A stretch of 64,000 nucleotides of DNA. It comes from a plasmid. The notes below the pieces were generated by a model. That model did not search any database, had not been told where the DNA came from, and saw only the letters and a list, made by a program, of their open reading frames with translations. This document shows positions 26,521-38,210 of the stretch, in pieces. Both the position numbers and the translations under genes were made by a program. How positions within the stretch are numbered: position 1 is the first letter of the stretch; each line of letters opens with the position of its first letter. The DNA lies in the sequence record NZ_CP088995.1; one strand, 5' to 3'.

Positions 26521-27024
26521 TTACTGATAGTGTTTTATGTTCAGATAGTGCCCGATGACTTTGTCATGCAGCTCCACCGATTTTGAGAACGACAGGGACT
26601 TCCTGCCCAGCCTTGCCAGATGCTGTCTCAGATTCAGGTTGTGTCGCTCAATTCGCTGCGTGTAACGCTTACTGATGACGTGCAGTTTTCCCTTCAGACG
26701 TGACTCATACATCGGCCAGCCGTCCGTCATCCATACCACCACGTCAAAAACTGACAGCAGGCTCAGAAGACGCTCCAGTGTGGCCATAGTGCGTTCACCG
26801 AAAACGTGGGCTACCACCGCCCTGCGTATCCTGTCATACGCGTAAAACAGCCAGCGCTGACGTGATTTTGCACCGACGTAGCCCCATTGCTCGTCCATCT
26901 CCGCACAGACAATGACATCACTGCCCGGCTGTATCCGGGAGGTTACTGACTGCGGCCTGAGTTTTTTAAATGGCGCAAAATGGTGTTGAGGCCCACGCCC
27001 ATTAGTCGTGCGGTGGCACGGCAA
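26521..27024 (-). CDS. insB: IS1 InsB (167 aa)
   Basis: translation matches IS1 InsB; overlaps insA as expected for the frameshift fusion. Confidence 0.9.
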
Positions 27025-27218
27025 CCGACGCCGTTCATAGCCATATCAATGATTTTCTGGTGTGTACCGGGCTGAGAAGCGGCATAAGTGAAGGTGAGCT
27101 GCCATGTTTTACGGCAGTGAGAGCAGAGATAACGTTGATGCCCGGCAGTACTTTTGCCATTACGCATCACGCCTTCAGTAGCGGAACAGGAGGGACAGCA
27201 GACGGAGACTGAAGCCAC
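26943..27218 (-). CDS. insA: IS1 InsA (91 aa)
   Basis: [40 protein letters not shown]... zinc-finger N-terminus. Confidence 0.9.
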
Positions 27219-27473: not shown

Positions 27474-28496
27474 TCAGTTTCGGAATCGGCGCAGATGAGT
27501 TTCGGGAACAAAATAAATGTTGCCGCGCGCCCGTGAGCATGCCACGTACAGCCTGTTACGGGACGACGGTGGAAGGGTTGCCAGTTCCTGACGGGTCAGA
27601 AGCTTCCAGTGGGAGGATCCCATCACAATGCAGACATCCTGAAAGTGATCGAGCCCTTTACTGGCGCCCCAGTTCATGGAATAGCAGCCGTAACGGTGAT
27701 GTTCACGATAGAAGAGCTTAATCACCGTATTATCGGCGTGCAGGGTGGCTGAGCGCTCTGTATCTGCGATCGTTTCAATCAGGGAGGCATGTATCCCATG
27801 GGCAGCGATACGGATGTTCAGTTGCCCGGTGATAAACTCGCACACTGAAGCTGAGCAACGCCATGTCCGGTTGAGCGTGTCCCGGTCAACCGCGAAACCT
27901 GCTGCGTCGAAGCGGGCCTCATATCGCGTGATGTCGTCGTGCAGCGTTGAATTAACGTTGCCGTCATGGCTTGTATCAAAGGTATGCTGATAAAAATCGC
28001 CGCAACAGAGCACAGTGATTTCCGCGCGGCAGAGCTCCAGCAGAAAATTAAAGTCATGTCCGGCAAAGTCCTGGACTTCATCGACAAGCAGTTCATCATA
28101 GTAACGGGCAAGCCGGATACGGATATCCGGCAGCAACCCCCGGGCTGTCAGTAAATGTGCGAGCCTCCGGTGATACAGCCGTCCGGCGGGATCCTGATAA
28201 TGCCGGGCATTCGTGCGCGGTATTCTGGGTGGGGGCTGGTCGAAGCTCAGGCCACGCGATGCCAGCTGCTCCTGCAGGAAAGGCCGGAAGCAAAAACCGT
28301 GCAGAAACTCAAACCAGGTCATCACCCTGATCCCTTCCGGGATAAAGCCAAAACGTCTGATAATCTGTGCCCGCAGATGCGCTTCATTATTCACGGTGAA
28401 GGTCAGGAGCAGCGTCCTCCTGTCCTCACTCAACCGTCGTATCAGCAGCGTGGTCTTGCCCGAGCCGGCAACCGCAAATATCACTCTCTTATCCAT
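27474..28496 (-). CDS. Compact UvrD/Rep-like superfamily 1 helicase (340 aa), downstream partner of the OLD-family gene
   Basis: Walker A AVAGSGKTT at residues 8-16, motif II DELLVDEVQD, motif III CCGDFYQ, motif VI LYVACSRARGN; 16-bp overlap with the upstream gene. Confidence 0.65.
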   Translation of the reverse strand: MDKRVIFAVAGSGKTTLLIRRLSEDRRTLLLTFTVNNEAHLRAQIIRRFGFIPEGIRVMTWFEFLHGFCFRPFLQEQLASRGLSFDQPPPRIPRTNARHYQDPAGRLYHRRLAHLLTARGLLPDIRIRLARYYDELLVDEVQDFAGHDFNFLLELCRAEITVLCCGDFYQHTFDTSHDGNVNSTLHDDITRYEARFDAAGFAVDRDTLNRTWRCSASVCEFITGQLNIRIAAHGIHASLIETIADTERSATLHADNTVIKLFYREHHRYGCYSMNWGASKGLDHFQDVCIVMGSSHWKLLTRQELATLPPSSRNRLYVACSRARGNIYFVPETHLRRFRN

Positions 28497-30043
28497 GCCA
28501 GTGCCTCCTGAATATAATCAGGTACGGTCAGCTCTCCGGCGTGCAGCTGTAACAGCCGGAATGCTGCTTCTGCCTTATTGGCCAGCATGTATTCCTGCAC
28601 CGTGAGTGTCCGGCGGGGTCCGCGGAAAAGCGTATCACACAGATCAGCGTTATCCTGATACAGGCTGATTTCAAATGTGGATCGGGTGTTATCGCGATCA
28701 GCAAATACCCGGGAGCGGGAACAAATCACGTCAGCATAGCGTTCATCGCAGTTTTGCTGATAGTTGCCGTCATTATCACGAAGGGCCGCGACGCGATTTT
28801 CCAGAAGACGGGCCAGTTCAAGATAACGACGGAAACTCGTTCCGCCGATAGCGATGATGTGAACTCCGTCTTCCTCCGGTGCCCTGCCATACAGGCGGCG
28901 ATAAAAGGCCTCGATCAGAATAAACTCAGCATCCCCCTCCACGAGCAGCACACGTCTGGCCAGCGCAAATTCCAGTACGTTATTATCCGGTGCTTTCATG
29001 AAGAAGGCGGCAGTCTCAGCGGAAAGTTCATTCATCAGTACCGGCCGGGCAGACCCGAGGAGGATTGCCTTACGCAGATCGAGGCGGGAGGAGATATGGC
29101 TGCTGTGTGTGGCAATAAACACCTGCGTCTGCCGTTCAGTGGCAAGCTGATTAACCAGCCTCTTCATACTGACATGGCTGAGATGATTTTCCGGCTCCTC
29201 AAGCAACAGTACGTGGAGCTCTCCCTGCTGCTGATGCCGCTGCAGCGCAAACTCCGTTTTGATGAAGCACTGCCTTCCTTTTCCACGGTGACGAATGGAA
29301 ATACCGTCCTCGGTAATGTCCAGATTCGCCTCAAGCCCTGATTTAGCACCGGAACGCACGCCAAACTGATACGTTTCCAGCGTGTCGTTTATGGCTGACA
29401 GATGCCGGGTGCAGAAGTGCATTTTCTGTTGCCGGTAACTGTTTTCAAGCCGGTACCGATCGGCCACCGGCACATTGACGCTGTAAACTGTGCGCGTATA
29501 TTCCTGTGCGGCGTGCTCGTTATCGATGCGTGCACTGTCTAAGAGCAGATGGCGCAGATAGCGTCTGAAGCTGGCGAAATGACCACCGGAGAAGGTGCTG
29601 AACCGCACGGAATAGTATTCATAGGGAAAATTATCGGGATCCTGCTGTAGTACATTGTGAATATCCTGGCCGTATTCCTCCGTCATTGGTGCAATACGCA
29701 TTCTGAGACCATCCGCATTGATACCCGCCAGATTTTGCCTGCCGTTCAGGTCAGGATCTCCCCCATTACTCAGGAAAACGTCAGCTGTCAGCACGGGTAA
29801 CTGATCGGCGCGGCGCTCACCTTCCTGAAACTGCCTTACTGCTGACTGGGACAGGAGCGATTCCACACCCAATGCCTCGACCCGGTGCCGGCTGTCACTC
29901 AGCACAAGGTCAAGGGCCAGCAGAATCGTGCTTTTCCCGGACTCATTGTCCCCGACCAGAATGTTACGGTCATGAGTGAAGCGCAGGTCCAGTTCCGGAA
30001 ACTTTTTAAAGTTTTGCAGCATAAGCCGCGTGATCAGAGGCAT
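28481..30043 (-). CDS. OLD-family ATP-dependent endonuclease (ABC-type ATPase + TOPRIM), 520 aa; GajA-like
   Basis: Walker A GDNESGKST, ABC signature/Walker B region LLLEEPENHLS, C-terminal TOPRIM-like LLVEGDAEFILIEAF. Confidence 0.7.
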   Translation of the reverse strand: MPLITRLMLQNFKKFPELDLRFTHDRNILVGDNESGKSTILLALDLVLSDSRHRVEALGVESLLSQSAVRQFQEGERRADQLPVLTADVFLSNGGDPDLNGRQNLAGINADGLRMRIAPMTEEYGQDIHNVLQQDPDNFPYEYYSVRFSTFSGGHFASFRRYLRHLLLDSARIDNEHAAQEYTRTVYSVNVPVADRYRLENSYRQQKMHFCTRHLSAINDTLETYQFGVRSGAKSGLEANLDITEDGISIRHRGKGRQCFIKTEFALQRHQQQGELHVLLLEEPENHLSHVSMKRLVNQLATERQTQVFIATHSSHISSRLDLRKAILLGSARPVLMNELSAETAAFFMKAPDNNVLEFALARRVLLVEGDAEFILIEAFYRRLYGRAPEEDGVHIIAIGGTSFRRYLELARLLENRVAALRDNDGNYQQNCDERYADVICSRSRVFADRDNTRSTFEISLYQDNADLCDTLFRGPRRTLTVQEYMLANKAEAAFRLLQLHAGELTVPDYIQEALAWIRE

Positions 30044-30116: not shown

Positions 30117-30533
30117 TTATCTTACCCAGTCTTCCAGCACAAGACCCGGTACCCGCTCAAATTCCCGCGTATTATTCGTCACCAGCACGGCACCGGCGGC
30201 GATGGCGTGCCCGGCAATGGCCGTGTCGTTCGGGCCGATCGGCGTCCCGGCCATTCGCAGCGCCACCTTAATCTCCGTGGTGGCGTCCACCGCAGCGCGA
30301 TCCCAGGGCAGGATGGCATCGAGGCGGGCGCAGAACGCGTCGACCAGCTCGACGTGGCGCGGGGAGGCCTTCGGGCCGGTGGCCCCGAAGCGCATTTCAG
30401 AATAAGTGATGGCCGAGACAACGATGCGCTGGCCGCGCAGCACCGCCTGCTCCAGGCGCTTCAGGACGGCTTCCGGCTGCTCGCGCATGATGAACGAGCA
30501 GATACAGGTGTCGAGCATATAGGTCTTGTTCAC
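30117..30533 (-). CDS. vapC: PIN-domain toxin VapC
   Basis: MLDTCICSF... with conserved acidic residues and C-terminal VTNNTREFERVPGL typical of VapC. Confidence 0.85.
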   Translation of the reverse strand: MNKTYMLDTCICSFIMREQPEAVLKRLEQAVLRGQRIVVSAITYSEMRFGATGPKASPRHVELVDAFCARLDAILPWDRAAVDATTEIKVALRMAGTPIGPNDTAIAGHAIAAGAVLVTNNTREFERVPGLVLEDWVR

Positions 30534-30763
30534 AGGTTAAATCGTCCTTCGTCGCTGACAACGTCCTCGCGCTCCGCCATAAAGTCCGGGTCTGCCTTCT
30601 CGAACTGCGCGAACGAGCCCCAGGTCGGCCGGACGGGACGCAAAATAATGCTGTCCCCTTCCCGGACGATCTCCAGCTCGCTCACTCCCTCAAAATCCAG
30701 ATCGCGGGGCAGACGAATGGCGCGGTTATTGCCGTTTTTAAAAATGGATACAGTTCTCATCAT
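30530..30763 (-). CDS. vapB: VapB antitoxin (SpoVT/AbrB-type), overlaps vapC by 4 bp
   Basis: MMRTVSIFKNGNNRAIRLPRDLDF... swapped-hairpin DNA-binding N-terminus. Confidence 0.8.
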   Translation of the reverse strand: MMRTVSIFKNGNNRAIRLPRDLDFEGVSELEIVREGDSIILRPVRPTWGSFAQFEKADPDFMAEREDVVSDEGRFNL

Positions 30764-30780
30764 TTCCTCCTGGCCGACCG

Positions 30781-30910
30781 GCCTGTATGACTATGTTCAG
30801 TATATGCAGATGCAAAGCATATGTATAGTCATAGCATATGCAGATGGTAAGTATATGCGTATGCCACACCTATGCAGATGCCCGGCATATGGATATGTTG
30901 AACCTATGTT
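30781..30910. promoter_or_regulatory. Array of short ATGCAGATG/ATATGC-type repeats in the intergenic region between vapB and the RHH-led operon (candidate operator array or divergent promoters)
   Basis: TATATGCAGATGCAAAGCATATGTATAGTCATAGCATATGCAGATGGTAAGTATATGCGTATGCCACACCTATGCAGATGCCCGGCATATGGATATG seen directly in the sequence. Confidence 0.5.
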
Positions 30911-31338
30911 GTATTCTCTCTTTTCCCGGTCAGATCCGAAAAAAGCTAGTTCCGGATCTGCCGGAACGGCTCCGGCGCGCAGCGGCCCGGCAACACAAGA
31001 TGTAGCGGTGTTCCCAGCTGAGGATGACGCTATATGTTGTGTCCCTCCCCTCCCCCGTGACCGGCCGCTCACCACCGGAAAACGCCGCTTTGCTTATTCC
31101 CTGACCGTGGTACACTTCCGGAAAGTTGTTATACGCAAAAAAATCGGATCTGCCGGAAACGGCCATCCGGTAATTTAGCTGCGTGACTGTTTCATGCCTT
31201 ATCACGTGCTGATTTCTTCCTTTGTGTACAAAATGAATCATAACGTATACATTTATTGTTATAGCGGTAAATCAGGCTTCATGTTTACTTCAAAGACCAT
31301 TTACCAGTCCTGAATACGTTTTGCATAAGGAAGGAGTC

Positions 31339-32283
31339 ATGGCGAAGATCCAGGCCAGAAATGTTGACGATGCGCTGTTTGCACGCATTGAGCAGTCAGC
31401 GATGAAAAATGAACGTTCACTCGAAGGGGAGATCCGCCTGGCGCTGGCCAGACAGTATCCTGCCGGGACCACCTCTCCGGAAATCCTCTCCAGCCGGCAA
31501 CAGTGGCAGAAGGAATGTGGCGGGCGTCTGCGCGCCCTGTTTGACCGTCTGTCCGCTGACGGCTTTTTCCCGGGGGCCGGGCAACCCGGGCCGACGCGGA
31601 TCGCCGACCAGGTACGGATAGCTCACCGGTTACATGTTTCCCCGGGACTGCTCCTGGACTGTATCGATGGCGCCGGTGAGTTAACCCGTGAGCTGGCTGA
31701 ACGGATTGAAAGCCGGTTCGGCGCCAGTGCAGACTGGCTGACCACCGGTGACGGGAAGATGTTCCCGCTGGTGATCCTGGGGACGTATTTTGGTGTCAGC
31801 TGGGAGGAGTTTTTCTTCCCGGATGATGATGAAAGGTATGTCTTTGAGTTCATCCGCATCGCCGGTGGGCGCCATGATGGCACCCTGATGATCCTGCGCC
31901 AGCATGAGCAGAACGGCCGTATCACTGCCGGCGTGGTAACAGAGGCGTTTTTCCTTGGTGCCGGTATGGGGCCGGGGGGGTATGTAAACCTGAAAGAATT
32001 TTTGTTGTTCCTCAGACAACACGGCGGGAATCTGGTCATGAATGCGTATGTGTTCTCCCCCCCGGAGCCGGATTTTGATTTCTGGTCAGTCATGGGTCAG
32101 CACCATCCGGTCTGGTTCCGTGACGCCAGACGTCGCTCCCCTTCCCGCTGGCTGCAGCAGGTACTCAGTGGTGAAGATCCGGGCGAATGGTTTGCCGGGG
32201 GATGGTCATCAATACTGAAAGAAGTGGCCGAAGCTACCCCTCCGGATAACGCTACTGAACATACAGAAAAAAATGATGAATGA
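31339..32283 (+). CDS. Multidomain protein: N-terminal Arc/FitA-like ribbon-helix-helix, central XRE-like HTH, C-terminal domain of unknown function (315 aa)
   Basis: MAKIQARNVDDALFARIEQSAMKNERSLEGEIRLALAR (RHH pattern); ...ELAERIESRFGASADWLTTGDG (HTH end); strong RBS AAGGAGG. Confidence 0.6.
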   Translation: MAKIQARNVDDALFARIEQSAMKNERSLEGEIRLALARQYPAGTTSPEILSSRQQWQKECGGRLRALFDRLSADGFFPGAGQPGPTRIADQVRIAHRLHVSPGLLLDCIDGAGELTRELAERIESRFGASADWLTTGDGKMFPLVILGTYFGVSWEEFFFPDDDERYVFEFIRIAGGRHDGTLMILRQHEQNGRITAGVVTEAFFLGAGMGPGGYVNLKEFLLFLRQHGGNLVMNAYVFSPPEPDFDFWSVMGQHHPVWFRDARRRSPSRWLQQVLSGEDPGEWFAGGWSSILKEVAEATPPDNATEHTEKNDE

Positions 32284-32319
32284 TTCGGTGCATCACGGCA
32301 ACGTATAACAGGAAACCAG

Positions 32320-32712
32320 ATGAACAGAACATATGACGAACCAGAGACCGAAACGGACGTGATGGCCGCCGCCTTCCGCACCATACGCAGGTACGGCATG
32401 ACTATCATCACCGCCACGCAGCATATGGATGTTAATGGTTACGTGAAAACTGACCCGCGGATGCCCAGAACGCGGCTGCGCCGCTACCTGGGGCAGTATG
32501 GCCTGCGCGGTGAGGCGCTGAACAGGGAGGTCAGACGTATCGTTGCAGGGCCTGAGCGACGCGACAGTAAGCTGAAGGACGGGATTTACTATACCTGGCC
32601 TTATGGCTGGGAGCCCTGTGATTTTACGCCGATGATGCGCCGTATTTTTCGCGGGAAGCGGACCCGCCATGTGATGATGTCAGATGAAATGCCAGCGCTG
32701 TTTCTCAACTAA
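32320..32712 (+). CDS. Hypothetical basic protein (130 aa), operon member
   Basis: 37 bp after previous gene, same strand; no recognisable motif. Confidence 0.5.
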   Translation: MNRTYDEPETETDVMAAAFRTIRRYGMTIITATQHMDVNGYVKTDPRMPRTRLRRYLGQYGLRGEALNREVRRIVAGPERRDSKLKDGIYYTWPYGWEPCDFTPMMRRIFRGKRTRHVMMSDEMPALFLN

Positions 32713-32736
32713 AGTACTAACGAACAGGCCCAGTCT

Positions 32737-33291
32737 GTGTATAAGCATACTCCCCAAATCAGGTTCGGGATGATAGCGCCCGGACAACATGGCAAGAATC
32801 TGCGGGACATTCCTGAGCAGTGTTTTGATTACGGGTTTGATCGGGAAGATCGCTGGCCGGGGCTGGTTCTGGCCTCTACGGTAACTGTGCCGAACGGTAA
32901 CACCGATGGCTGGCGACTGGCGACGCAGAGTTGTGGTGGATTCAGCTGTAACGAATTTCAGGCCGCGGTTCTGCCCCTGCCAGTTCGCCCGGAGATGCTA
33001 CGGTTTCTTGAAACCGTCGCGGAGGAGGAATTTTCGCCGGCGCCTCTGGATTACTTCAATATGATGGATGCCGCCGATGCCGCAGCAGTTAAAAAAGGGT
33101 TCCTGTCATGTCTTCACCGCGCGGGGCTTTCCTGCAGTGAGCATAATCTGTCACTCCTGACACAGGCGCTTTATCCGGTGGATGCCACAGCGGAAAACAT
33201 GAAGATCCTGGCCGGGAATTGTACTGAACTGGCCGCAATGAAGGTTCCCGGGGGACTGACGATATTTATCGTGGGTCAGAACTGTGATTAA
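32737..33291 (+). CDS. Hypothetical protein (184 aa), operon member
   Basis: 24 bp after previous gene; cysteine-containing, no recognised domain. Confidence 0.5.
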   Translation: MYKHTPQIRFGMIAPGQHGKNLRDIPEQCFDYGFDREDRWPGLVLASTVTVPNGNTDGWRLATQSCGGFSCNEFQAAVLPLPVRPEMLRFLETVAEEEFSPAPLDYFNMMDAADAAAVKKGFLSCLHRAGLSCSEHNLSLLTQALYPVDATAENMKILAGNCTELAAMKVPGGLTIFIVGQNCD

Positions 33292-33336
33292 TTTGAACAC
33301 AAATGAGCCATTCCTGGAGACGGAGGATAACAGTCA

Positions 33337-33540
33337 ATGATGCCGGCATTACCAGGTCCGGGCGTTTCGTTTTCCGCTGCGCAGCTGCCGATGATGACGA
33401 CCCTGAGCGCCAGTGACGGCTGTCACCTGTATTTTGAGCAGGGCACACTGGTGTGGATCGAGGTTTACTCGCAGGGCGACAAGCGCTGGCCGTTTTATGG
33501 CAGACCAGAACTGACGGGAATTACCCATTCATCCACGTAA
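33337..33540 (+). CDS. Small hypothetical protein (67 aa), operon member
   Basis: preceded by GGAGACGGAGG RBS. Confidence 0.4.
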   Translation: MMPALPGPGVSFSAAQLPMMTTLSASDGCHLYFEQGTLVWIEVYSQGDKRWPFYGRPELTGITHSST

Positions 33541-33569
33541 CAGTTACGCAACGGGACAAAGAGACCGGT

Positions 33570-34574
33570 ATGGAAGCGAAAACTAAAACCTTCATAAAAA
33601 CGTCTGTTGATGATAACGGCATGTGGCTGCTGACCGTCCCGGCGGGGAGCGCGGGCAACGAAACGGTGGTTGTGGTCGTCAGACGGGTGGAGGAATGTCG
33701 TTACGGGTCTGAGGACTCGCCAGGGGCATATCTGTGGATCACCTGTAGCCTGACGCTGTACGGTGACGGACAAAGTACACCGCAGACCATTGTCGCGAAG
33801 TTCGAGCACGGCCGTGTGGAACTGTTCAGTGTTGAATTTATGCTGAATGAATTTTTACCCCGTGGTCGGGGAGTGGGCAGCTGGATCATGCAGCAGATGG
33901 TGCTCTGGACCCGCTCCCTGCCGCCGGAAACGCTGGTCAGACAAATCCACATTTCGTCCGTGGATGCGAAAAACATTCACAATCTGATCCGCCGGAGCAG
34001 ACTGTGGCGTGGGCTGGGTTTCCGGTTCCCGCCGGGGGAAACCAGCTCAATGCCGCTGCGGGCAGACGAACTGCAGTTGCCACGGGGCAGGTGTTCAACG
34101 CTCCGGGTGGAGCCCCTGGTATCCGCGGTACGCCGGCTGGAAGACTGTTATCGCGGGCTGCAGGAAAAAATCGTGCAGCTCGAAGGCAAAAAACGGTCGC
34201 AAAAACAGTTAATTACTTCACTTAGGAATCGTCCATTTTATCATCTGTTGCACAGGAAAGGGGGCCAGCTCCCGGACGAGAAATGTGACGCCCTGCCACT
34301 GCGGGCAGAAAAACTGTCTCTGCCGCAGAGCGGGGATTCTGACCTGGAGGTGGCGCAACGGGCAACCGGGGTTATCCGGCTGGCAACCCTGTGTAGTCAG
34401 TCGCAGGAAAAAATCGTTGAGCTCGAAAGGGATCTTGCCTCGCAAAGTGAATACCTCCTTGACCTGCAGACAAAGCTCCTTTCTATCCTGTGGGGGAAAG
34501 TCGCTAACCTGACCTTATTCTGGGGGGGCGTGGTGATTTTTCTGTACTTTATCAAGTGGATGTTGGTGGCATGA
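33570..34574 (+). CDS. Membrane-anchored coiled-coil protein (about 334 aa from MEAKTKTF) with two internal repeats and a C-terminal transmembrane helix
   Basis: repeats PLRADELQLPRGRCSTLRVEPLVSAVRRLEDCYRGLQEKIVQLEGK / PLRAEKLSLPQSGDSDLEVAQRATGVIRLATLCSQSQEKIVELERD; C-terminus LTLFWGGVVIFLYFIKWMLVA. Confidence 0.5.
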   Translation: MEAKTKTFIKTSVDDNGMWLLTVPAGSAGNETVVVVVRRVEECRYGSEDSPGAYLWITCSLTLYGDGQSTPQTIVAKFEHGRVELFSVEFMLNEFLPRGRGVGSWIMQQMVLWTRSLPPETLVRQIHISSVDAKNIHNLIRRSRLWRGLGFRFPPGETSSMPLRADELQLPRGRCSTLRVEPLVSAVRRLEDCYRGLQEKIVQLEGKKRSQKQLITSLRNRPFYHLLHRKGGQLPDEKCDALPLRAEKLSLPQSGDSDLEVAQRATGVIRLATLCSQSQEKIVELERDLASQSEYLLDLQTKLLSILWGKVANLTLFWGGVVIFLYFIKWMLVA

Positions 34575-34757
34575 ATGTTCCCGTTCCATAGCCACCCACT
34601 GAAGAGGACTGAAACCAGTGCCCGAAAATATCGTGTCTGTAATCACTGACGGGGTAGTTTTGTTTGCGACTTCGTCTGTTTTCTGGCTGGCTAGTCATCC
34701 TGACTCCGGTAATATTACGAAGAAAATTCTCGGCAAAGAAAAAAGTTAACAGAAATT

Positions 34758-35537
34758 ATGAATAACCTGGTTCCAGTTGGATCTCCGCAATCTCCCGGAA
34801 CATTGCTCCCGGTGGCCATCGATTACCCTGCCGCCCTCGCCCTGCGCCAGATGGCGCTCGTGCAGGATGAACTGCCGAAATACCTGCTGGCGCCGGAAGT
34901 GAGCGCCCTGCTCCATTACGTGCCGGATCTTCACCGCAAGATGCTGCTGGCGACGCTGTGGAACACCGGCGCGCGCATTAATGAAGCGCTCGCGCTGACC
35001 CGGGGGGATTTTTCGCTGGCGCCGCCGTATCCGTTCGTGCAGCTGGCCACGCTCAAGCAGCGCACCGAGAAAGCCGCCAGAACGGCCGGCCGAGTTCCCG
35101 CCGGTAGCCAGGCTCATCGCCTGGTTCCGCTTTCCGATCACCACTACGTCAGCCAGCTGCAGATGATGGTGGCCACCCTGAAAATTCCGCTGGAAAGACG
35201 AAACAAGCGCACCGGCAGAATGGAGAAGGCGCGTATCTGGGAGATCACAGACCGTACCGTGCGCACCTGGCTTAGCGAAGCGGTGGAGGCCGCAGCGGCC
35301 GACGGGGTGACGTTCTCAGTACCGGTAACCCCCCATACGTTCCGTCATTCCTACGCGATGCATATGCTGTATGCCGGCATACCACTGAAGGTTTTGCAGA
35401 GCCTGATGGGCCACAAATCGATTAGCTCGACGGAAGTCTATACGAAGGTGTTCGCACTTGATGTTGCTGCTCGGCATCGAGTTCAGTTTCAGATGCCCGA
35501 AGCGGATGCGGTAGCCATGCTGAAAGGGAATATTTAA
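34758..35537 (+). CDS. resD: Tyrosine site-specific recombinase of the ResD (F-plasmid D protein) multimer-resolution type
   Basis: C-terminal catalytic region ...HTFRHSYAMHMLYAGIPLKVLQSLMGHKSISSTEVYTKV... (R..HxxR..Y). Confidence 0.8.
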   Translation: MNNLVPVGSPQSPGTLLPVAIDYPAALALRQMALVQDELPKYLLAPEVSALLHYVPDLHRKMLLATLWNTGARINEALALTRGDFSLAPPYPFVQLATLKQRTEKAARTAGRVPAGSQAHRLVPLSDHHYVSQLQMMVATLKIPLERRNKRTGRMEKARIWEITDRTVRTWLSEAVEAAAADGVTFSVPVTPHTFRHSYAMHMLYAGIPLKVLQSLMGHKSISSTEVYTKVFALDVAARHRVQFQMPEADAVAMLKGNI

Positions 35538-37484: not shown

Positions 37485-37555
37485 TCTGTAATTTATTTTC
37501 CCTCCCCCCTTAGTTTGTTGCTGACATATGGGGGGAACTAAACTTGCTGTATTTC

Positions 37556-38210
37556 CCATAGTGCTTGCCTAACTTGACCTGTTTCCCACAATCCCGGCTG
37601 TCTGCGTAGTTGACCTGTTTCCCACAGTCCCGGCCGTCTGCAAAGTTGGCCTGTTTCCCATAGTCCGGGCCGTCTGCAAAGTTGACCTTTTTCCCATAGT
37701 CCGGGCCGTCCGCGGAGTTGACCTGTTTCCCATAGTCCGGGCCGTCCGCGGAGTTGACCTGTTTCCCATAGTCCGGACCGTCCGCGGAGTTGACCTGTTT
37801 CCCATAGTCCGGGCCGTCCGCGGAGTTGACCTGTTCCCATAGTCCGGGCCGTCTGCAAAGTTGACCCGTTTCCCATAGTCCCGGCCGTCTGCAAAGTTGA
37901 CCTGTTCCCCATAGTCCGGGCCGTCCGCGGAGTTGACCTGTTTCCCACAGTCCGCGCCGTCCGCGGAGTTGACCTGTTTGCCATAGTCCGGGCCGTCCGT
38001 AAAGTTGACCTGTTTCCCACAGTCCCGGCCGCCCGCGAAGTTGACCTGTTTCCCATAGTCCGGGCCGTCCGCGAAGTTGACCTGTTCCCCACACTCCCGG
38101 CCGCCCGTGAAGTTGACCTGTTTCCCATAGTCCGGACCGTCCGCGAAGTTGACCTGTTTCCCATAGTCCGGAGCGTCCATAAAGTTGACCTGTTTCCCAC
38201 AGAGGATGGA
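37556..38210 (+). repeat. Array of about 18 tandem 36-bp direct repeats (unit AGTTGACCTGTTTCCCATAGTCCGGGCCGTCCGCGG) between rep and parA; incA-like copy-control iteron array
   Basis: seen directly in the sequence; position equivalent to P1 incA / RepFIB downstream repeats. Confidence 0.8.

Follow-up and report, generated by a model that had tools for sequence, protein, structure and literature searches.

A variable gene array between an rfsF-like site and resD in an IncR plasmid backbone: probable cargo of a recombination-prone slot

We analyzed a 64,000-nucleotide stretch of plasmid DNA (sequence record NZ_CP088995.1; hereafter the window) with respect to five consecutive plus-strand open reading frames (ORFs), orf1 to orf5 (31339-34574), which lie upstream of the recombinase gene resD. 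An earlier note, made from the letters alone, had described them as an operon of unrecognised function and a candidate defence or exclusion module. The five ORFs were confirmed, and RefSeq has the same five, each annotated as "hypothetical protein". The genes are uncharacterised and stand in a conflict-rich neighbourhood, and they are not a dedicated five-gene system. A conserved rfsF-like site and resD enclose an interval whose gene content is combinatorial, and we consider it likely that the locus is a variant of the F-type operon of rfsF, head module and resD, and that its interior serves as a cargo slot prone to recombination, with orf1 in the place of ccdAB as the DNA-binding head and orf2, orf3 and orf5 carried as autonomous passengers.

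We fetched 80 metagenome loci through resD, a sample drawn independently of the five genes, and 52 of them carried both an rfsF-like site and resD. These loci show 37 gene orders, with an rfsF-resD interval of 910-5084 bp, and the exact order of the window occurs in none of the 52. orf1 is present in 6 loci, ccdA in 10, the orf5 family in 12, orf2 in 10 and orf3 in 3. Any locus with orf1 or ccdA has that gene in first place, and no locus has both. orf1, orf2, orf3 and the orf5 family are each found without the others, and orf2, orf3 and orf5-type genes occur in other combinations, including after ccdAB in place of orf1. For example, the array of pCAVP50-53 reads a68-b102-c109-orf2-e110-resD and has no orf1, and that of another Klebsiella plasmid reads ccdA-ccdB-orf2-f104-GNAT338-resD. 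No other gene separates orf1 from resD in Pantoea stewartii (where they overlap by 4 nt), P. brenneri, Candidatus Pantoea bathycoeliae, Enterobacter BRE11 and the contig L009, deposited under Chryseobacterium; the Edwardsiella locus has a DUF2913 gene between the two. The family i233/X261, which the window lacks, is present in 29 of the 52 loci and is the commonest gene directly upstream of resD (e.g., loci L067-L083, L105, L116 and L118); its uncharacterised members have 220-260 aa, a hydrophobic N-terminal segment and no Pfam match, and the family is anticorrelated with the GNAT family described below (Fisher P = 0.003, shared ancestry uncorrected).

Among the 72,556 plasmid records of PLSDB, the 3.5-kb block matches 1974, of which 491 cover at least 80% of the block and 523, mainly from Klebsiella, are at least 99% identical to it. 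Because many of the matches are at least 99% identical, the exact block looks like a single spreading allele. Counted gene by gene, the records number 1067 for orf1, 1676 for orf2, 1427 for orf3, 950 for orf4, 1435 for the N-terminal domain of orf5, and at least 5000 for resD. In a Kluyvera contig (L010, 1610-4902), orf1 is 56% identical to the window copy and orf2 to orf5 are 82-100% identical; this difference places a recombination breakpoint between orf1 and orf2. In some related plasmids the five-gene block is broken by IS26.

Tight spacing, a shared direction, adjacent Gabija and vapBC genes, and a block intact in about 490 plasmids would all suit the proposal of the earlier note that the five products form one novel anti-phage or entry-exclusion system, and phage-exclusion genes flank rfsF elsewhere (pif in F, ibfA/pifA in IncI1). 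However, the components assort independently among the 37 architectures, recent common descent would account for the conserved block, given matches of at least 99% identity, orf4 is probably a gene remnant, and none of the five products matches PADLOC-DB 2.0 at E up to 1. The earlier note had itself named the absence of conservation as a unit as the observation that would speak against such a system, and independent assortment across plasmids and metagenome loci, where the gene set is not kept together, is that observation. We therefore regard a single five-gene system as very improbable. The same note was right that no standard function is recognisable: none of the five products matches a maintenance, transfer, resistance or defence family curated in Pfam, NCBIfam, PADLOC or PHROGs, and the only curated matches in these libraries are a FitA-like ribbon-helix-helix (RHH) in orf1 and a PHROG of unknown function in orf2. 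A literature search by the five RefSeq accessions returned no paper, and searches of the literature on resD/ccdAB/IncFIB, on pKpQIL and transposon-directed insertion sequencing, and on defence hotspots returned nothing on these genes beyond descriptions of the IncR backbone.

The upstream edge of the variable array is a conserved, rfsF-like non-coding block (31000-31185). Multimers of the F plasmid are resolved through ResD and rfsF; in that plasmid rfsF is part of the oriV1 region, upstream of ccdA, and ccdAB and resD are co-transcribed. The block aligns with the F pifC-ccdA intergenic region, after which the sequences diverge by head gene; orf1-headed and ccdA-headed loci part immediately after GGTAATT. 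This motif closes a 61-bp core (31115-31175; CTTCCGGAAA-N18-AAAATCGGATC-...-GGTAATT), and the core pattern has a single match in each of 71 sequences (70 loci and the window), always upstream of the first array gene, whichever gene heads the array. This placement of the rfsF core within the block is putative. A site in this position of IncR plasmids has been named rfsF, with different DNA fragments mapping directly downstream of it (PMC9412624), and IncI1 plasmids switch gene sets at rfsF (PMC8004404). Between the block and orf1, an alignment of 13 orf1 upstream regions delimits an orf1-specific leader (31186-31338, plus strand). Near 31220-31265 it has a TTGAnTCATAAnGnATACAT-like block that is conserved, near 31312 there is a second ATAC(A/G)T, and the ribosome-binding site is GGAAGGAG; this leader is a candidate promoter and operator region.

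The conserved downstream end of the array is resD (34758-35537, plus strand), a tyrosine recombinase gene whose product and F ResD share 90% identity across 249 aa (Pfam Phage_integrase, 7.6e-19). Spacers within orf1 to orf5 measure 36, 24, 45 and 29 nt, and a scan before resD found no terminator-like site. The common strand, the short spacers, and the start/stop overlaps with resD in related loci are consistent with co-transcription. Good ribosome-binding sites had been claimed for all five genes; those of orf1 and orf4 are clear, whereas those of orf2, orf3 and orf5 are weaker. The 183-nt gap between orf5 and resD (34575-34757) is unusually long for the array, and an ORF of 46-56 aa (u4) is predicted there in related loci.

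The layout of F is pifC (minus strand), ccdA-ccdB-resD, repE and sopAB. Order and orientation are common to F and the window, as are a divergent upstream gene and a homologous rfsF-region block, and in both the head module begins with an RHH-type DNA-binding protein and is followed by resD, rep, iterons and par. The two differ in the interior: no ccdA or ccdB occurs in the rfsF-resD interval of the window, which instead has a single 314-aa protein with an RHH, a helix-turn-helix (HTH) and a C-terminal domain, plus four genes before resD, and no toxin partner was identified.

Integron arrays likewise consist of variable, small, promoterless-looking genes that adjoin a recombination site and a tyrosine recombinase gene. 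We rejected an integron-like cassette array, since no repeated site occurs at the junctions: the window has no attC-like repeats, the junctions, which have no common site, are no more than about 15 nt away from start and stop codons, and the spacers between array genes share no common motif. Furthermore, each locus here has one full-length rfsF-like pattern, and the recombinase stands at the far end and is co-directional. Copies of orf2 in different contexts are similar from about 12 nt ahead of the ATG to just past the stop codon.

The domain description that the earlier note gave for orf1 (31339-32283, plus strand, 314 aa) is correct. The product has a FitA-type RHH (residues 1-40, 31339-31458), a cI/XRE-type HTH of five helices (residues 88-136, 31600-31746), and a large alpha/beta C-terminal domain with invariant GQHHP and W..G..P motifs (residues 140-300, 31756-32238). 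The RHH scores 26.5 bits against Pfam PF22513, for which the cutoff is 27, and PF22513 is above the cutoff (27.5-43.6 bits) in 7 of 10 distant family members scanned. A profile search against PDB matched FitA (E = 0.02) and HTH proteins only. The AlphaFold model (predicted local distance difference test, pLDDT, 84; predicted template modelling score 0.75) contains the RHH region, a long helix, an HTH with the cI/Cro-type five-helix fold and a confident alpha/beta domain; the RHH region has low confidence (pLDDT 50-72), as expected where folding depends on dimerisation. Homologues with identities as low as 43% occur throughout Enterobacterales and align over their full length, and the family, with 39 clusters in 1.84 billion proteins, has a constant architecture. 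The C-terminal domain has no solved relative, and it carries invariant His-His, Arg, Asp and Glu residues. Its position at the head of the array places orf1 in the slot that ccdAB holds in F and other plasmids.

The last gene, orf5 (33570-34574, plus strand, 334 aa), had been called a membrane-anchored coiled-coil protein with internal repeats, and both the duplicated coiled coil and the anchor were seen. A divergent GNAT-fold domain (residues 1-165, 33570-34064) with the motif R98-G-R-G101-V-G103, that is, with an intact R/Q-x-x-G-x-G/A acyl-CoA loop, is followed by a duplicated linker and coiled coil (about 34047-34289 and 34290-34505) and a C-terminal membrane anchor (34506-34571). In the duplicated region both alternative frames are open (34004-34225 and 34009-34212), and many of the orf5 "homologues" in databases are frameshifted into those frames.

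For the uncharacterised orf2 (32320-32712, plus strand, 130 aa) and orf3 (32737-33291, plus strand, 173-184 aa; 184 aa from a GTG start, with an inner ATG as the start in RefSeq), neither a fold nor a family was detected in the curated libraries or by PDB sequence search; such searches with these two proteins and with the C-terminal domain of orf1 returned nothing significant. To judge from the sequences, orf2 is an independent cassette that also occurs behind ccdAB or c109; its product matches phrog_26837 (E = 2e-13). Relatives of orf3 at 33-44% identity occur in IncHI1B and IncHI2 plasmids apart from resD, and 830 of the 1427 orf3 records, in these same plasmid types and distant from resD, are below 60% identity. 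A relationship between orf3 and the DUF2913 protein encoded in the Edwardsiella slot was considered and rejected, as the two show no similarity. orf4 (33337-33540, plus strand, 67 aa) is probably a remnant of a 102-aa cassette protein, because its residues 20-53 align at 82% identity with residues 59-92 of b102, a protein of pCAVP50-53. Of the 950 orf4 records, 501 are full length, and the full-length form is nearly confined to the near-identical block.

In the operon that we propose, an rfsF site would be followed by a head module with its own promoter, by optional cargo genes and then by resD. The slot would hold ccdAB alone in F, and here orf1 in place of ccdAB, followed by four passengers. 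The array would be transcribed from a promoter just downstream of rfsF into resD, like ccd-resD in F. orf1 would bind operators in its own leader, autoregulate the transcript, and set the expression of resD and of the cargo as CcdA-CcdB does in F. Its C-terminal domain may be an oligomerisation or signal-sensing part; phage cI and 186 CI-type repressors, in which an HTH is joined to such a C-terminal domain, are among the closest known systems. orf5 may be a membrane-tethered, acyl-CoA-dependent acyltransferase that faces the cytoplasm and acts alone or under control of the head module, orf2 and orf3 may be autonomous single-gene accessories, and orf4 a remnant. Given independent assortment and these putative roles, the genes would be neighbours by recombination and common transcription, and not subunits of one machine.

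Several points weigh against this proposal. The sampled loci come from related plasmids, so their counts are descriptive. The single transcription unit is a reading of the sequence, as is the promoter in the orf1 leader; a promoter scan upstream of orf1 passed no consensus sigma-70 match, and the 183-nt gap before resD may contain a small gene or an internal promoter. That orf1 binds DNA and regulates its own transcript is deduced from predicted folds and position, and its C-terminal domain, to judge from its conserved residues, could be an enzyme or effector and not a sensor. Finally, orf1 and orf5-type genes co-occur above expectation in the 52-locus sample (4 of 6 orf1 loci, odds ratio = 9.5, Fisher P = 0.02, shared ancestry uncorrected), and they are adjacent in a Pectobacterium polaris chromosome (L002, 1462-9841), where a GAAD/GASH/DO-GTPase/GAP1-N1 conflict system directly precedes the orf1-like and GNAT-coiled-coil genes and resD is absent from the vicinity.

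The last two observations also speak for a different explanation, in which orf1 and orf5 are a two-gene module of an RHH/HTH antitoxin-like regulator and a GNAT effector (an addiction or abortive-infection sensor-effector), and orf2 to orf4 are inserted passengers. RHH-GNAT toxin-antitoxin pairs (TacAT, AtaRT and KacAT) are an established class with co-directional genes, in which the toxin acetylates aminoacyl-tRNA and its antitoxin counteracts it, and adjacency is likewise seen in some relatives of the window: in two metagenome loci and in K. pneumoniae ATCC 13883, where the orf5-type gene encodes 269 aa, a GNAT-coiled-coil gene comes immediately after an orf1 homologue, and its start codon overlaps the stop codon of that homologue. 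In Serratia ficaria, members of the orf1 and orf5 families are each recorded on a 17,982-bp contig. However, each gene is often found without the other, and in the window the two are separated by three genes. They also differ from the known pairs in size and architecture. The antitoxins of that class are small DUF1778-type proteins, whereas orf1 is four times their size, with a FitA-type RHH, an HTH and a C-terminal domain; the toxin is a GNAT protein of about 170 aa, whereas orf5, at 334 aa, also includes a coiled coil and a membrane anchor, and occurs without orf1. We consider a two-gene module rather unlikely.

By analogy with the accessory proteins of cer and psi, orf1 might instead be an accessory or architectural DNA-binding factor for ResD at rfsF that assists in assembling the synapse or confers selectivity on resolution. 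It adjoins the rfsF-like site, is co-directional with resD, has two DNA-binding domains and is translationally coupled to resD in Pantoea. Furthermore, a 352-aa paralogue of orf1 with 24% identity (L051, 5001-6059, in p1024KPC2, IncU/ColRNAI) is divergent from an HTH gene, a hypothetical gene, a 47%-identical resD-like recombinase gene and parM; this paralogue occurs in several hundred Klebsiella plasmids. Nevertheless, the PLSDB records with resD far outnumber those with orf1, the F layout has no orf1, and members of the orf1 family occur in chromosomes with no recombinase nearby, and we hold this role to be improbable.

A broader possibility, which we rate as doubtful, is that the rfsF-resD interval of F/IncR/FIB-type plasmids is a hypervariable hotspot for single-gene conflict modules (phage defence, plasmid competition or addiction), with orf1 as a one-polypeptide sensor-regulator or fused toxin-antitoxin, made up of RHH, HTH and a C-terminal domain of unknown fold, that replaces CcdAB in function, and the tail-anchored GNAT protein as a membrane-proximal acyltransferase effector. 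Under the favoured reading of the interval as a cargo slot behind an orf1 head, it would not be fixed backbone, which alters how "hypothetical backbone genes" are read and compared, and it would offer a defined place to seek new stability, competition or defence functions. Widespread, clinically dominant resistance plasmids of Klebsiella carry orf1 to orf5 on their backbone (PLSDB has about 500 nearly identical copies), related arrays occur in several thousand resD-bearing plasmids, and the slot gene families other than ccdAB have no match to the curated families searched. Two families are tractable targets, that of orf1 and the tail-anchored GNAT family; if orf1 does control resD expression, it bears on plasmid dimer resolution and hence on plasmid stability.

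The backbone of the window runs from Gabija and vapBC through the rfsF-like site, orf1 to orf5, resD, repB and 36-bp iterons to parAB. The published IncR backbone comprises vagCD, rfsF-resD, repB, 36-bp iterons, parAB, umuCD and retA (PMC7707992, PMC9412624). The window agrees with it gene for gene, and the published descriptions leave the rfsF-resD interval unnamed and orf1 to orf5 uncharacterised. As the earlier note had stated, toxin-antitoxin and Gabija genes are neighbours of the block: a gajA-gajB pair (27474-30043, minus strand) was scored by PADLOC (GajA 1e-102, GajB 1e-46), and vapBC (vagCD; 30117-30763, minus strand) is divergent from the array on the opposite side of rfsF. Directly upstream of the vapB start on the minus strand, 30799-30900 holds five to six ATATGCAGATGCAAAGC-like repeats at 17-bp spacing (Tandem Repeats Finder: 4.7 copies of a 17-bp repeat at 30802-30881), which are probably VapB operator sites together with the vapBC promoter. 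A 153-aa "hypothetical protein" in RefSeq (WP_014343465, about 30717-31178, plus strand) overlaps vapB and the non-coding rfsF-like block, and is probably a spurious gene call. An IS1 with insA/insB-type ORFs (26521-27218) adjoins the end of gajB. Downstream of the block, the tyrosine recombinase is followed by a Rep3-type initiator, by the 36-bp iteron array (37574-38199, 17.4 copies, 89% matches) and by parAB; three long spurious ORFs on the minus strand (37510-38200) arise from the iteron array.

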